Source: Dromiciops gliroides (lineage: Eukaryota). From it: a stretch of DNA of 64,000 bases. Shown here one piece after another: positions 14,950-58,740 of this stretch. The stretch's first letter is position 1. Each line of letters begins with the position of its first letter. The notes beneath the pieces were generated by a model that was not told where the DNA came from, ran no database searches, and was given only the letters and a program-made list of their open reading frames with translations. The stretch is from the NCBI RefSeq assembly GCF_019393635.1, contig NC_057863.1:490584948-490648947 (forward strand), in the 5' to 3' direction. The translations under genes were made by a program, and so were the position numbers.

Positions 14950-15480
14950 ATGGTACATAAAGCAATTTGTTTAGTAGAAACTGTGAGAGCTTGCATTCCA
15001 CTGATTGGCTATGTGGTAAAAATTATTTATGGTAAAAATTATTGGAGTTTTAGCGGACTCATTTGGGAGGGGCCACACCTGGCCCACCCTGAAGTTATAT
15101 ATGCTACTGAGGTCAGAAGGAGACCTCTCCATAGGCAGTTTTGAAGGACCTCCCCTTTTGGGGGAGGGAGACTGAACGCTCTCTGAGGGGAGGAGAGCAA
15201 CTTCCAGAATGCCCTCGTGCTCGCCTGCTAGCTCCTTGGTCTTCTAGGTGATGCGGAGAAACTAACAGATATCCCAGGTGTGGGGAGTTTTAAAAACCCT
15301 GCATTCCTTTTAATTAGCCTAATTGGAAATGATCTGGGGATTGCATAGACTTAGTTTAGAGTTAAGAGAATTTATCTGTATTTCTTTTCCCCTATTTCCT
15401 TATCTTTGATTTTTATTAATTTCACCTTTGTTGTTTAATTCCCAAGTAATAAAATCTGATCCTTTTGTGGAAAAGAAGCT
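14950..15480 (+). mobile_element. Solo retroviral-type LTR.
   Basis: It has a TATA-like tatatatgct at ~15097, a U3-R-like region, and the polyadenylation signal aataaaatctga at ~15450. The segment is unique. A CpG-rich homologous fragment lies at 31600-31700. Confidence 0.6.
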
Positions 15481-18400
15481 GTAAGGCTACTTTCTTATTG
15501 GCCTGGGAGAAATATCTAAAAGGGCAGGTCAGAGGGGAGGGAGCTTTGAACCTAGAGGTCTGTCATTATTTCCAGGATCCCAATATTTCGGCAAGTAACC
15601 CAATTAGTGCTCCATATATTAAATTTCGGCCCCTACAGCTATTTCCATGCCTTGATGAGGTATCAAGTCTTCAAAAAAATCTGCAATCTCATCAATGAGG
15701 ATACTTTCTCAAATAATATACATTATGATCCAAACATGCCAGCTTATCCTGTAGGATTCATATCCACCTTTCCTTATAATTTCACCACAGGTGGTTTGCC
15801 CATCATGCTGGGGATTTCCTTGTTTTCTCTTACAGTTAGCTAAGCCTTGGTTTTACCACTTGACCATTCATCTCTTTAACAACATCCTATGTAAAATTCT
15901 TCTTTGTAATTCCTCATGTGTTTATGTCTTGCACCTTGTTCATGCCCACCATGAGGTTCTCCATGGCCTTTGAGATAATTTAGTTTAAATTATTTTGAAT
16001 TGGAAATTATATTATTCCATGACTTGTTATATATCTCTATATAGCTATATATCTCTATCTATATCTAGCTATATTATATAACTATATGTCACCACCAGAA
16101 GAGTATTGGTGTCTGAAAAAGTTTCAAGTAGAAGCTTGTAGTGCTTAAAAGGAACTTTCTAATTACCCAAAGGTAATTCAATCTATCTTCCTACTACTTT
16201 TCAACTCTGAGTCCAATTCAACATCCATTTACAAATACTGGTGGAAGAACTCTACAGGTTACCCATTCAACTGATAACTTTATACTATATAATAGACATT
16301 CTTCATTCACTTGTTTTTCCTGGGTGGATAGTTAGGAGAAACTCTTTCCTGATGACAAATCTAAGCCATGAGGCTTGATGCAATCAACCCAATGTCATCT
16401 GCAAAGAGGATTATATGGAGGAACTCAACATCTATAAAAAATCCCTTTTCAACTTAGAGCTAGCACTGGATTTCTTCTCCATGACAGCAGTAACTACCTT
16501 TGCAAACACACCTTCCTGTGTTATGCCTAGGTTACTTTCAATGATTAGAGTATTCGACAAACAATATCATCTATGTTTTATATCTTAAGGAATTTTGCAT
16601 AATTTTGACACATACATGGGATTTGTCTTGTCATAGAAGAATCTTTAAAGTAGTATGTTGCTCAACTGAATCAAATGCTTTATAATAGTTGAAAAATGAG
16701 TACATTGGGATCCTATATTCTCTACATTTTTTAGTTAACTGTGTCATACTTTGGAATATCATTTGCAAAAGCCTACTATTCTCTTCTAGTGCTTTAAAGA
16801 ATGTCCTCAGTGTATGTGTATATTATTCTCATAAAAACTGTATACTTACTAGAAGGTAAGCATGTGGGTTAGTAGTTATGGATGTTCTCTTGCTTGCCCT
16901 TTTTGCAATCAGGCTTGACATGCTTTCCACACCTTTGGTCTCTTCCTTTCCTTCAGATTTCTTGAATATAAATCTCTTAAGAACCTTACTATCGTAGCCC
17001 TTCTAACAGAGACTTCCTCTGTGTATACTTGGTCTAGTCCTCCTGCTTTTTCCACCTTTCTCTTCAGTGCTTTTTCTATAACGACATCTAGAACTGGAAT
17101 GGTGGAGACCAAGTATGATGGTTCTGTTGTCTTTGATGGCAAAGTTACAAAATTATTTGCAGAACTTGAACATATTTTGTTTATTTGTTGCTCCAATAGT
17201 TTCATCTTTAAATGTCTTATTTAATATCACACCAGAATCAACTTATACCCATACCTTCTGTCTGTGTATACTCCTTCTATCTGCCTTAATATACAGTTTT
17301 CATGAGTTCCAAGTATCTTCTTCCCATGTAGGGATGTAAACATTTTAACCTTATTGAATAACATGTTTTATTTTTTTCCTGTTTTACCTCTTCCTGTGTC
17401 TATTGAGTCTTGTATTTGTAGATTGAGTTTTCTGTTCAGTTCTGGGCTTTTCATTAGGAAAGTTTTAAAGTCCCCTATTTCATTGAATACCCATCTTTTC
17501 CCCTGAAAGATTATGATTAATTTTGCTGGGTAGTACATTCTTGGTTGTAATCCCAGTTCCTTTGCCCTCTGGAATATCACATTCCAAGCCCTCCAACTCT
17601 TTAATGTTGAAGCTGCCAGGTTCTGTGTAATTCTGATTGTTGTTCCTTGATATTTAAATGGTTTCTTTCTGGCTGTTTGCTGAATTTCTCCTTTACTTGA
17701 TATTTCTGGAATTTGGCTATAATATTCCTTGGAGTTTTCCTTGGGGGGGGGGTGTCTCTTTCAGGAGGTGATCGGTGGATTCTTTAGAAGACTAATTTTT
17801 CCTCTGGTTCTAAGACACTGGGTCAGTTCTCCTTGATAATGTCATAAAATATGCTGTCTGGGCTCTTTTTTTGATCATGGGCCTCAGGTAGTCCAATTAT
17901 TCTTAGGTTGTCCCATCTGGATCTATTTTCCAGGCCTGTTATTTTTCCGAAGAGATATTTTACTTTTCTTCTACTTTTATAGATATTTTTGAGTCTGCTT
18001 TGCTTCTTCCTGTTGTCTCATTGAGTCATTAGCTTCCATCTGCCCAATTCTGATTCTTAAGGAATTATTTTCTCCAGTCAGCTTTTGTACCTTCTTTTCC
18101 ATTTGTCCAATTTTATTTTTTAAGGATTATTTTCTTTTTCCAAGCTATTGACTTTCTCTTGCATAACTCTCATTTCTTTTCCCAGTTTTTCTTCTACCTC
18201 TCTTATTTGGTTTACAAATTCCTTTTTGAGCTCTTCCAAGAGGGCTTGGTTTTGAGACCAATTCCTCTTTCCCTTTAAGGCTCACATATAGGAATTTTAA
18301 TGTTGTTGTCCTCATCCGAGTTCATGTTTTGATTCTCCCTGTCACTATAGTTATTTTCTTTTTAAAAAATGTTTATTTATTTATTTTTTTAGTGAGGCAA

Positions 18401-31150: not shown

Positions 31151-31288
31151 ATCATTTAGGCCGATGCTATTTGCTGGTTTGAGAAGAATGTTTTCCAGAT
31201 GGCCAAGAGCTTCCACCCAAATCAACTCCACTAAGGTAGTCACATCTTCACTTATAGTATCTCCATTTAATACATCCTCCAACAGCAA
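31151..31288 (-). CDS. PARP4: PARP4 exon. Encodes LLLEDVLNGDTISEDVTTLVELIWVEALGHLENILLKPANSIGLND.
   Basis: The translation matches human LLLEEVMNSSTLSQEVSDLVEMIWAEALGHLEHMLLKPVNRISLND. The acceptor is ggttccag|TTG and the donor is AATGAT|gtaagt. Confidence 0.85.
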
Positions 31289-31442
31289 CTGGAACCAAAA
31301 AACCACAAGTTACAAAAGTTGCTGTTTATGTGAAGAGAAATGATTATGGCCTAGACTAGGGAGAAGTAACATGGTTATTCTTGGCATTCTACAGCTCCCC
31401 ATCATGGTGCCTCTTTATTTTCTCACTCTTTACTTCTTCTTC

Positions 31443-31580
31443 TTTTTTTTTTTTTAGTGAGGCAATTGGGGTTAAGTGACTTGCCCAGGGTCACACAGCT
31501 AGTAAGTGTTAAGTGTCTGAGGCCGGATTTGAACTCAGGTACTTCTGACTCCAGGGCCGGTGCTCTATCCACTGTGCCAC
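31443..31580 (-). mobile_element. tRNA-derived SINE, 5'-truncated, abutting the CpG-rich LTR fragment.
   Basis: The sequence is ttttttttttttagtgaggcaattggggttaagtgacttgcccagggtcacacagctagtaagtgttaagtgtctgaggccggatttgaactcaggtacttctgactccagggccggtgctctatccactgtgccac. Confidence 0.9.
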
Positions 31581-31599
31581 TGTGGTAAAATATGAAAGT

Positions 31600-31812
31600 T
31601 TTTAACAGTCGGTTAGGATAACTGAAAGACGCCAGTTTTTCAAGGACCACCCTTTTGGGGAGGAGACGAACAGTCCGCCTGCTGCGCACGTCAGACTGCC
31701 TGCGGGACTCGACTTCCGGGGTGGAGAGAACGGAAGTGGGGCTTTTGCCTGCTTGGCGGGACTCCTGACGGCGCGGCACAGACTCTCTCTCTCCAAAGGT
31801 GGCCTTTTCGGT
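31600..31812 (+). promoter_or_regulatory. LTR-derived fragment inside a PARP4 intron that is unusually CpG-rich and ends in a strong plus-strand splice donor.
   Basis: The stretch caaggaccacccttttggggaggagacgaacagtccgcctgctgcgc is homologous to the LTR at 15119-15240 (gaaggacctccccttttgggggagggagactgaacgctc…). It contains about 15 CpGs in ~200 bp (acgtcag, cttccgggg, ggcgggactcctgacggcgcgg). It terminates in ggtttg|gtgagttttt. Confidence 0.5.
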
Positions 31813-32491
31813 TTGGTGAGTTTTTATAAGGAATATAGACTAAGCTTAGACTTAAGACGATTTGTATTGTGTTTCTACTTTCCTATCCTTCTAATCAACA
31901 TCACCTTGTGACTACCATAACAATAAATAAAAAGGTCTATCTAGAAAACCAAAAGCTTCTTCCATTTACTAGTTTGGGAGATAAATTAAGGGAAAGGTTA
32001 AGTAGGGGAGATTTATGATCTAATATCCAATTTTAAATCTCACACCACCTAGCTGCCCCTCACTCTTTACTTCTTGACTGATGCTTTCTTAAGTTCTCTC
32101 TTCTACTCCTTTCTCCCTTTTCTTTTCCTTAGGTTTGTTGACTTTAGGTCCTCCATTAACACTTGTGCTTGGGCTAAAAAGGCATATACTGACATATCTT
32201 ATGGAAGATAATTAAATTATTTGAAACTAAATAGGGTCTGCTGTTTACATACATTACCAAATCAGTAACAGATGTAGCAGATTATCCCATTAGGCTTTTA
32301 TGACCCCTTTTCAAAGCTCTAAGACTAAAAAGCTCTTATTTCTATGGTCTTTTTCTCTACTTTTGCAATTCTTTTCTCTTGTAGTAATTTTTCAGTCAAA
32401 CAAATGCCTTTTCTCTTAATAATACTAAAACAAGTATGTTTAATAATTTGTGACCAGAACAAAGACAAATAAATAAATAAATCAGTCTCAC

Positions 32492-32641
32492 TGCTTGTAA
32501 CTTCTTAGATGCTAGTAGGTTTGCTTCAGGTGGAAAATTTTCTGATGGCAGAAATCCTTGTTTCTTCAGTTCTTCAATATAATTCTCATAGTATTCACTT
32601 GCACCTTCAGATGTATTCTTTCTAGATAAATGTCTTCTAGG
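32492..32641 (-). CDS. PARP4: PARP4 exon. Encodes PRRHLSRKNTSEGASEYYENYIEELKKQGFLPSENFPPEANLLASKKLQA.
   Basis: The translation matches human TRRQFAIKKTSEDASEYFENYIEELKKQGFLLREHFTPEATQLASEQLQA. The acceptor is aattggcag|CCT and the donor is CAAGCA|gtgaga. The exon is 150 nt. Confidence 0.85.
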
Positions 32642-52089: not shown

Positions 52090-53100
52090 AAACATCTTTA
52101 GCCCCCGGAGGAGCGTTGGCCCTGCTTGACAGCATCAGTTCCAGCTTAGATAAGGCCCCATAAACTTCTTGGTTGGTTGCTTCCTAGTCCTCTGCACCGC
52201 CTTCCGCCTTTGGGAGTTGCTAAAAGCAAATTTCTACTACGAAAGGTGGTTTCTGGAAACGATTCTCACTCAAAGTAAAGGAACCACAGTTCCCAAAGCC
52301 AACCTCCAAAGCCGCCTCCACTCCCGCCTCTCTTTCCAGCATCAGCGGAAGGAGCTTCTCGACCCAGTCAACGACCAGTAACGTCCATTTCAGGGCTGTG
52401 TCCTGGGGGTTGTAGTTCGCAAACCAGCCTGCGGCGCCCTGCCTCTAGGACACTGAAGGCACAGTTGGCCTACATTTCCCAGATGCCTCAGAACCCCGGC
52501 GGGTGGAGCCCCGACGGGGTTGGAGGCGGGGCTTCGGTGGAGGCGGTGGCTCATTTGTAAATGGAGCGGGAGGCGCTGGAGGTGCCGCGGCTCTGGCGCC
52601 GGTTGGGAACTGAACTGAGGGGCCAGAAGAGGCGAGAGTGGTAATTTGGGGCCGCGGGTGGGGTTCGGGGTCGTTTCCGGGTGGTTGAGGCTGGGGGGGA
52701 AAACAGTTTTGTCCTTGGGCGCCTGAGCCCGGCAGCGTTTTGATGCCCTAGGGATGCCCCGGAGCCCCGCTCTGCGGGAGGCCCGGGGGTTTGGGGGAGA
52801 GGGAAGACTGCTCCATGGTTGTCCAGTTCGGGGCCTGGGGTGAGGGTGAGGGCGGGGACGCCCTCTCCACTGTGCCCCCGACTTGTCACAGCTTGCTCCG
52901 GACGCTTTTTGCTGTAGTGAGATGAGGGTCCGGTTTCTGGGAGGTTTTAAAGAGTTTCTGCTTTAAGTCCCCTGCTGGGCTCCTTTCCCTTTTAAAGTCG
53001 CTCTTGATCGTTTTCTGTGCTTTGATGCTGATGGGTTGTGGAACCGTCGCTATCGGTTTCAAGGCTTTTAAATCCTTGGTTTAGAGAAGAAAAGAAAAAG
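52090..53100. promoter_or_regulatory. CpG island between the divergent 5' ends of PARP4 (minus) and CENPJ (plus). It is probably a bidirectional TATA-less promoter.
   Basis: This is the only long stretch with dense CpG in the window, for example ccccggcgggtggagccccgacggggttggaggcggggcttcgg and gccgcgggtggggttcggggtcg. It is GC-rich, unique sequence and begins directly after a MIR-like repeat ends at ~52080. It contains ETS-like CTTCCG/GGAAG sites and a partial ZNF143/THAP11-like ACTACA..TTCCCAG motif at ~52466-52490. Confidence 0.6.
52500..52639 (+). other. CENPJ: Putative CENPJ non-coding exon 1 (5'UTR). The TSS is not determined.
   Basis: A plus-strand donor GCGAGAGTG|gtaatttgg lies at 52639/52640 inside the CpG island. 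Exon 2 (57647) begins 91 nt before the ATG, which implies an upstream non-coding exon. The 5' boundary is arbitrary. Confidence 0.3.
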
Positions 53101-56671: not shown

Positions 56672-57646
56672 GTGTATACATATATATGTCTATATATACT
56701 GAGTATGTGTGTATATATATGCACATACTTATGCTATAGCCAAGTCATATCTGTATAATATATACATCCAGATCTATAGAATATATGTATATGTATGTGT
56801 CCATACTATTGTTTTATAATGGTGTCTTTCATAATGGATTGCTGTTTCAGGAGAATACTTGGGAGGGGATGTATATATTCAGTATATATAGACATAGATG
56901 CCAATATCGATATGTGTGTATATGCATATGCATATATACTGTGGGGACCAATTTTTAATTGGGGAGTGTTAGCTAAGCGGCTTGCCGAAATATTGGGGCA
57001 AGGAAGGAGACCGGCAGCCTCCCTCAAAACAGAACAAGATTTATTTTAACAAGAATGAACTTAAAAAAACCCAACACAAACAGGATCAGTAGGATCAAGG
57101 GAAAGGAAATAAAATGGGGAAAGGGAAATTATAATACCTGAAAAAATACCACCGCCCAGGAATCAGCTGAAAATACGCAGCAGAACGCCTGTCGTTTTCC
57201 AGCTTCATACTATTTATTTTATAGTGTTGTCTTTCATAATGGATTGCGGTTTCAGGAGAATATTCAGTTTAATTTGTTAGAACATCTGATAGATCCAATT
57301 ATGCAAACATTATTAAGTGAATATTATGTACAAGGTGCTGTAAGATGTGCTAGAGATAAAAATATGAAAAAACTTCCTAGCTGAGGGAATTCATAGGCCA
57401 GTATTAGAAGAGGGAAAAATGTACCCAGGTAACTACAAGTAAGAATGTGAAATATTCAAAGGAGTGGCCAAACAAAAGGGATAAGCTATTCCAGAAGTAG
57501 TTCTTTTAGTTGGGGGTTCAGAGGAAAGCTTTGTGAAGGTGGTGGTACCAAAACCCTATTTGAGAAGAGAAAGATTTCAACAAGCCTATGATGGGGCTGG
57601 ATGCTTTCTATTATAATGGTTTTAATTGCTGTTTTTCTCTCTGCAG

Positions 57647-58208: not shown

Positions 58209-58740
58209 TTGTGTACATGGTTTTTATCTTCACTAATAGCTTATATATTTTGTGGGGGAGGGGTTAGACAATTGGGGTTAAGTGAGTGTACATGGTTTTT
58301 AAATGCATTTCTGCCCCCCCCCCAAATTTGTGTCCTTTTTTTTTTTTTTTGGGTGAGGCAATTGGGGTTAAGTGACTTGCCCAGGGTCACACAGCTAGTA
58401 CGTGTCAAGTGTCTGAGGCTGGATTTGTGTTTTTTTTTTTTTTAGTGAGGCAATTGGGGTTAAGTGACTTGCCCAGGGTCACACAGCTAGTAAGTGTCAA
58501 GTGTCTGAGGCCAGATTTGAATTCAGGTCCTCCTGAATTCAAGGCTGGTGCTTTATCCACTGTGCCACCTAGCTGCCCCCTGAGGCCGGATTTGAACTCA
58601 GGTACTCCTGACTCCAGGGCCGGTGCTCTATCCACTGCGCCATCTAGCTGTCCCCTGAGGCTGGATTTGAACTCAGGTCCTCCTGAATCCAGGGCCAGTG
58701 CTCTATCCACTGTGCCATCTAGCTGCCCCAAGTGTCCTTT
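58209..58740 (-). repeat. Compound SINE cluster in CENPJ intron 2. It holds nested or partial SINE fragments and a tandem triplication of the SINE tRNA-like half.
   Basis: The region 58209-58420 contains two partial SINE fragments (...gacaattggggttaagtgagtg... and ttttttgggtgaggcaattggggttaagtgacttgcccagggtcacacagctagtacgtgtcaagtgtctgaggctggatttgtg). A complete SINE follows from 58431 and runs into two extra tandem copies of the ~70-bp unit tgaggccggatttgaactcaggt(a/c)ctcctga(a/c)tccagggcc(g/a)gtgctctatccactg(c/t)gcca(c/t)ctagctg(c/t)cccc, out to ~58735. Confidence 0.85.

Follow-up and report, generated by a model that had tools for sequence, protein, structure and literature searches.

A CpG-rich patch in a marsupial PARP4 intron belongs to the U3 of a solo LTR that is almost certainly young and nested in a SINE

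A target-site duplication of 4 bp indicates a class I retrovirus, LTRs are often co-opted as enhancers, and new splice acceptors classically arise from antisense SINE tails. Among marsupials, ERV1 solo LTRs of the Tasmanian devil carry 4-nt duplications, and in the opossum the predominant ERVs are those of class I (PMC4408412). The poly(A)-tailed type of marsupial SINE has been described in the same work, with near-identical young copies reported for the opossum and none reported for the Tasmanian devil (PMC4408412). Young LTRs in human are CpG-rich and are mainly silenced by DNA methylation (PMC6071641). Within introns, ERVs and solo LTRs show a significant antisense bias, which has been ascribed to selection against sense-oriented elements (PMC1794541).

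The segment considered here (31600-31812) lies in a window of 64 kb, the whole stretch of DNA analysed, and had been read in an earlier note as an LTR fragment that might act as a promoter inside PARP4. The gene context given there, between PARP4 exons at 32492-32641 and 31151-31288 and antisense to the gene, holds. Each of the two has an open frame on the minus strand, with AG and GT at its borders; spliced together, they align gaplessly with PARP4 residues 199-293 (E 7.7e-35, among the sequences of solved structures). The region between them is therefore a PARP4 intron, and the LTR is antisense to the gene. Protein searches with the PARP4 exons returned fragments 67-74% identical; the 96-residue exon peptide alone had no match in Pfam, and in its best homologue fragment PARP_reg falls just under the Pfam cut-off. 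Along the minus strand, more PARP4 peptides are found between 40.4 kb, where the BRCT region lies, and 2.7 kb, where the VIT region lies. Because an antisense bias of intronic elements is known, the orientation of the LTR is that expected of a tolerated insertion and is not a sign of function; the LTR gives the PARP4 strand no AATAAA.

The segment stands out by composition. Its 213 bp hold 15 CpGs, with a GC content of 0.577 and a CpG observed/expected ratio (o/e) of 0.85, while the window as a whole has a GC content of 0.37 and an o/e of 0.139, so the high density of about 15 CpGs reported earlier is borne out by the count. In a 200-bp sliding scan of the 64 kb, comparable density was found at one other locus only (52.2-52.9 kb). 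Under the definition of Gardiner-Garden and Frommer (at least 200 bp, GC at least 0.5, o/e at least 0.6) the segment is a CpG island; under that of Takai and Jones, which asks for at least 500 bp and was designed to exclude repeats, it is not, the CpG-rich part being ~230 bp long and the whole LTR having a GC content of 0.44. No match to Rfam was obtained at gathering thresholds anywhere in the window, and the GC-rich patch therefore does not stem from a structured-RNA gene.

The sole other CpG island of the window (52200-52950) is ~700 bp long, with up to 17 CpGs per 200 bp and a GC content of up to 0.685. It lies upstream, in the orientation of PARP4, of the first recognised PARP4 exons at 40.4 kb, and is probably the promoter and first exon of that gene.

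The CpG-rich segment is the U3 of an LTR, and hence a promoter/enhancer region by origin. What had been described as an LTR fragment of ~200 bp turns out to be the 5' part of an intact solo LTR of 464 bp, whose LTR-derived origin is confirmed by its TG...CA termini, by a 4-bp CCAC duplication and by homology to an LTR at 15 kb. The element begins TGTGG and has 4-nt inverted ends (TGTG/CACA). Its flanks read ...ATCCACTGTGCCAC on the left and CCACCTAGCTGCCCC on the right, while uninterrupted SINE copies in the window read ...CACTGTGCCACCTAGCTGCCC, with CCAC once only, and other copies run ...CCACTGTGCCACCTAGCTGCCC unbroken; the 464-bp unit was thus inserted into a SINE, duplicating four bases. 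At its 3' end the LTR abuts the duplication and then the remainder of the SINE, and since neither a primer-binding site nor any internal retroviral region follows, it is a solo LTR. At the level of motifs, its signals run from ETS and CRE motifs through TATAAG (31825) and a block at 31835 to AATAAA (31922/31926), after which ~115 nt of AT-rich U5 lead to the end of the element. With the usual spacing of 25-30 nt from the TATA box, transcription would start at ~31850-31858. The coordinates of all these features are given in Table 1.

Table 1. Features of the PARP4 intron, the nested SINE and LTR, and the related LTR at 15 kb (positions in the window)
Feature	Position	Strand	Details or basis
Divergent solo LTR, 626 bp	15012-15637	+	Starts TGTGGTAAAA, ends CTACA
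PARP4 exon downstream of the intron, ~residues 249-293	31151-31288	-	ORF and homology
SINE target-site duplication, left copy, 17 bp	31422-31438		CTCACTCTTTACTTCTT; direct-repeat comparison
Acceptor-like 23-nt polypyrimidine tract and AG (25 nt)	31433-31457	+	Antisense SINE tail; pattern only
Host SINE, 3' part (body and A13 tail), cut by the LTR	31439-31580	-	SINE alignment
LTR target-site duplication, left copy, CCAC	31577-31580		Flanking comparison
Complete solo LTR, 464 bp	31581-32044	+	Starts TGTGGTAAAA, ends TCACA
CpG-rich segment, bulk of U3	31600-31812	+	CpG count, GC 0.58, o/e 0.85
Half-CRE CGTCA (TGACG on minus)	31689-31693	-	Motif scan
Inverted pair of ETS cores	31712-31738		ACTTCCGG (31712-31719) and CGGAAGTG (31731-31738); motif scan
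Second half-CRE, TGACG	31766-31770	+	Motif scan
Donor-like TTG/GTGAGT, GT at 31816-31817	31813-31821	+	Rough PWM 8.8
TATAAG, presumed TATA box of the LTR	31825-31830	+	Motif scan
ATAGACTAAGCTTAGACTTAAGA, block at the U3/R border	31835-31857	+	Shared with the 15-kb LTR (15345-15367)
Two overlapping AATAAA (31922, 31926), in R	31922-31931	+	Motif scan
LTR target-site duplication, right copy, CCAC	32045-32048		Flanking comparison
Host SINE, 5' head, GGGCAGCTAG on the minus strand	32049-32058	-	SINE alignment
SINE target-site duplication, right copy, 17 bp	32059-32075		100% identical to the left copy
PARP4 exon upstream of the intron, ~residues 199-248	32492-32641	-	ORF and homology

The segment had been placed directly next to a SINE; the LTR in fact lies inside that SINE, and both pairs of duplications are intact. 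With its two parts rejoined, the host SINE needs no gap to align with 19 further copies. The family has 31 matches in the window, 20 of which are near full-length and were aligned, and among these 20 the host SINE is the least diverged from the overall consensus (3.7%). Measured against the consensus of its own subfamily, which was built from six copies in the window with the host SINE among them, it has 2 changes in 135 positions (1.5%), one of them a CpG transition. It keeps two of the three CpGs of the consensus, and its A13 tail is uninterrupted. The element has many dispersed copies, the A13 tail and a perfect 17-bp duplication, long target duplications being typical of L1-mediated insertion. 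The family is probably the poly(A)-tailed, tRNA-derived marsupial type (SINE1_Mdo / WSINE1; PMC4408412); a literature search with the SINE sequence gave no match. The SINE type marks the host as a marsupial, and near-identical young copies of this kind would hint at an opossum-like genome. Since the LTR interrupts the host SINE, it must be the younger of the two, an age bound for which the basis is two substitutions and a consensus from few copies. That an intact, young solo LTR is nested in this SINE is almost certain.

The density of SINEs is very high for a single family in 64 kb. The 20 aligned copies diverge by ~4% to 13% from the family consensus and the six copies by 1.5-9% from the subfamily consensus, and retention of CpGs broadly follows divergence, so that the copies are usable as an internal age scale. 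At 58335-58728, on the minus strand, four pieces of SINE lie head to tail (two 74-nt 5' halves, one full copy and one 3' part), as though SINE sequence had been duplicated locally in tandem.

CpG sites decay roughly ten times faster than other sites, and at a non-CpG divergence of ~1% the loss of methylated CpGs would amount to only a tenth to a sixth or so. As the LTR is recent, few CpGs can have been lost, and the sixteen now present need no protection from methylation. The retained CpGs had been taken as a sign of activity; they are explained by age, given a host SINE that is 1.5% diverged and flanked by a perfect 17-bp duplication. A young insertion was also the point that the earlier note had itself named as speaking against an active promoter, and it is the nesting order, not a family name from RepeatMasker, that brings it to light.

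The history that best fits these features would have begun with the entry of a poly(A)-tailed, tRNA-derived SINE of marsupial type into the PARP4 intron, with a target duplication of 17 bp. A provirus of class I or ERV1 type (gammaretrovirus-like) would then have integrated into the SINE, antisense to PARP4, duplicating CCAC, and recombination between its two LTRs would later have deleted the internal region and left the 464-bp solo LTR. The sequence of provirus and recombination is inferred, as is class I membership, which the 4-bp duplication suggests. On this account the U3 would owe its CpGs to the promoter and enhancer motifs of the virus itself, the insertion being too recent for methylation-driven decay, and the LTR would now be a methylated, silent and neutral intronic insertion. 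Because young LTRs are mainly methylated in human, silence is the default expectation for 31581-32044, and by this analogy the element is most likely methylated and silent. As a whole, with a young solo LTR in a SINE, CpGs due to youth and silence at present, the explanation is probable. Exact-pattern scans with the U3 block and with a block conserved between the two LTRs found no other copies in metagenome contigs, and exact-pattern scans of viral contigs likewise found none; a protein search with the joined stop-free six-frame pieces of the LTR gave 8000 word candidates, none of them significant. The element is an ordinary genomic repeat, a feature of an already known kind.

The U3 does contain motifs of the promoter type. 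The CRE-like and ETS-like motifs that had been pointed out are both present, as CGTCA at 31689-31693 and ACTTCCGG at 31712-31719. CGGAAGT cores occur three times in the whole window on both strands, and two of the three form the U3 pair, inverted, 12 nt apart and with half-CREs on either side; 5-mers of the half-CRE type are common (16 in the window) and so are weak evidence. With its inverted ETS pair, half-CREs and TATA box, the U3 carries a credible promoter grammar.

The splice donor is another matter. The strong donor reported at 31812 exists as a GTGAGT, but its GT is at 31816, so that an exon would end at 31815. The sequence TTGGTGAGT matches 7 of 9 consensus positions and scores 8.8 on a rough PWM, and the two adjacent real PARP4 donors score below it on the same matrix (5.1 and 7.4). 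The site ranks 40th among the 3267 plus-strand GT sites of the window; 40 sites on the plus strand and 36 on the minus strand score at least as high (~1 per 1.6 kb per strand). Its GT lies within U3, 9 nt upstream of the TATAAG at 31825, and the donor would therefore be absent from any transcript started at the core promoter of the LTR. Downstream of the TATA box the LTR has no plus-strand donor scoring at least 5, and a transcript with the canonical start would reach the AATAAA of the LTR after ~70-100 nt. An LTR-derived alternative promoter with a spliced first exon has its donor downstream of the LTR start, which is not where the GTGAGT at 31816 lies. Strength of the donor had been offered as a sign of activity; with the site on the wrong side of the TATA box and with ~40 equal or better plus-strand matches in the window, that argument falls, and the GTGAGT is most likely a chance match in U3. 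The major splice donor of retroviruses lies in the leader beyond the LTR and is lost from a solo LTR. The GTGAGT was also considered as that major donor and rejected, as the leader is absent here.

An unmethylated, active LTR promoter, giving a plus-strand transcript antisense to PARP4 with a first exon ending at the GTGAGT, would be in keeping with the promoter-type motifs of U3, with its standing as a CpG island at 200 bp and with a donor that matches 7 of 9 positions and outscores those of the adjacent PARP4 exons. It is nevertheless unlikely, because it needs a non-canonical start inside U3, upstream of a donor with ~40 equal or better matches per strand in 64 kb, because a transcript from the predicted start would meet the AATAAA of the LTR so soon, because the CpGs are explained by age, and because young CpG-rich LTRs are typically methylated (PMC6071641). 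The broader proposal, that the LTR has escaped methylation and is an ETS- and CRE-driven promoter of a PARP4-antisense RNA, with a start in U3 and splicing at 31816 or with an exon formed from the SINE-tail acceptor and the LTR donor, seems from the sequence distinctly unlikely; if it were true, the LTR would be a lineage-specific and possibly polymorphic regulator of PARP4. A young LTR such as this may be switched on in certain tissues or at certain stages of development.

Instead of a promoter, the U3 might be an orientation-independent enhancer for PARP4 or for a neighbouring gene. Clustered ETS and CRE-type motifs would suit such a role, but so recent an insertion has hardly had time to be co-opted and most such LTRs are silenced (PMC6071641), and we consider the enhancer very unlikely.

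A related LTR at 15 kb bears on the possibility that the element is old. This second solo LTR is flanked by a 4-bp duplication, GCTA (15008-15011 and 15638-15641), and has a CpG o/e of 0.25, or 0.23 when slightly different bounds are taken. By nhmmer the two LTRs match with E values of 2.5e-8 and 9.8e-10, covering positions 51-439 of the 31.6-kb LTR, and their global alignment scores 207, against 110 ± 11 for shuffled sequences (~8.5 sd above). They have in common the first ten bases, the length of the duplication, the start of R and the positions of AATAAA. The best-conserved part between them is the 23-nt block ATAGACTAAGCTTAGACTTAAGA, which has two matches in the window where none is expected by chance. 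Inside 31600-31812, BLAST aligns only ~35 nt to the 15-kb LTR (31637-31671, 82%); R-U5 (31835-32010) is the better-conserved part, with a stretch 61% identical. The homology that had been claimed for the segment is therefore significant by nhmmer and by shuffling, but it is distant and patchy and falls mostly in R-U5, outside 31600-31812. The corresponding position of the 15-kb LTR has neither GTGAGT nor TATAAG, and this LTR is longer by ~100 nt close to its 5' end, TTATATATGC at ~15093 included. With no homologous TATA box and with this extra 5' sequence, U3 has been remodelled between the relatives while R-U5 stayed alignable. Judged by these alignments, the two LTRs are related families or subfamilies and not copies of one family. 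A mapping CpG by CpG onto the 15-kb LTR was dropped, the U3 alignment being too gapped to trust.

A third LTR-like piece lies on the minus strand at 56940-57206 and ends GGTCCCCACA at 56940. In its U5 end it is similar to the 15-kb LTR, with CTTGCCGAAATATTGGG in common (nhmmer E only 0.81), and it includes an AATAAA as well as several CpGs. Together with a TA/TG-rich simple repeat, the piece lies between the two copies of a 49-nt direct repeat (56809-56857 and 57214-57262; 92% identical).

If the element were old, the CpGs of its U3 could have been preserved by an unmethylated germ-line state, like those of a CpG island under selection, while the rest decayed. The sharp contrast between U3 (o/e 0.86) and R-U5 (0.19) would fit, as would the CpG-poor state of the LTR at 15 kb. 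Decay of R-U5 should have left an excess of TG and CA, but the two stand at 0.65 and 0.79 of expectation, so R-U5 was CpG-poor originally and the contrast with U3 is built into the element and is not a product of local protection; CpG poverty of R-U5 as the result of decay was rejected for this reason. With an LTR younger than a SINE of 1.5% divergence that has kept its A13 tail and perfect 17-bp duplication, and with the target duplications of LTR and SINE both intact, great age is highly improbable. The faintest chance of all is left to exonisation, by which the SINE-tail acceptor (31433-31457) and the donor at 31816 would bracket a hypothetical cassette or terminal exon of 358 nt (31458-31815) in a plus-strand RNA that crosses the intron, for although a 23-nt pyrimidine run with AG has a good donor 358 nt further on, the plus strand shows no evident gene, PARP4 is on the opposite strand, and the pattern was noticed only once it was sought.

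As a young solo LTR within a SINE, the element is of little importance in itself, being one of the great many solo LTRs that a marsupial genome rich in repeats contains. The lesson is one of method: where a CpG-poor genome shows a short CpG-rich patch, the U3 of a young retroelement should be the first candidate to check, and nested insertions with intact duplications can bound an element's age from a single window without any repeat library. Should the insertion prove polymorphic, it could be used as a marker in populations or as a test case for the speed at which a new LTR is methylated.

Among known systems, the element is most like the class I/ERV1 solo LTRs of marsupials, which have TG...CA ends, a 4-bp duplication and a length of a few hundred bp (PMC4408412); it also shares with class I/ERV1 solo LTRs the order of U3 (enhancer motifs, TATA box), R (AATAAA) and U5, the lack of internal sequence, and an intronic, antisense position. 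The only relative compared, the LTR at 15 kb, has diverged so far that most of the U3 cannot be aligned. Like LTR-derived alternative promoters, it is an LTR with promoter motifs inside a gene and has a GT donor nearby; those promoters start at the R border and have the donor downstream, whereas the only strong donor in 31581-32044 is upstream of the TATA box. Like CpG-island promoters, it has a dense segment (213 bp, GC 0.58, o/e 0.85) with ETS and CRE-type motifs, but the segment is far below 500 bp, the probable host-gene island at 52.2-52.9 kb being three times longer, and its origin is retroviral and recent, so that the CpG density of U3 is uninformative on its methylation state.
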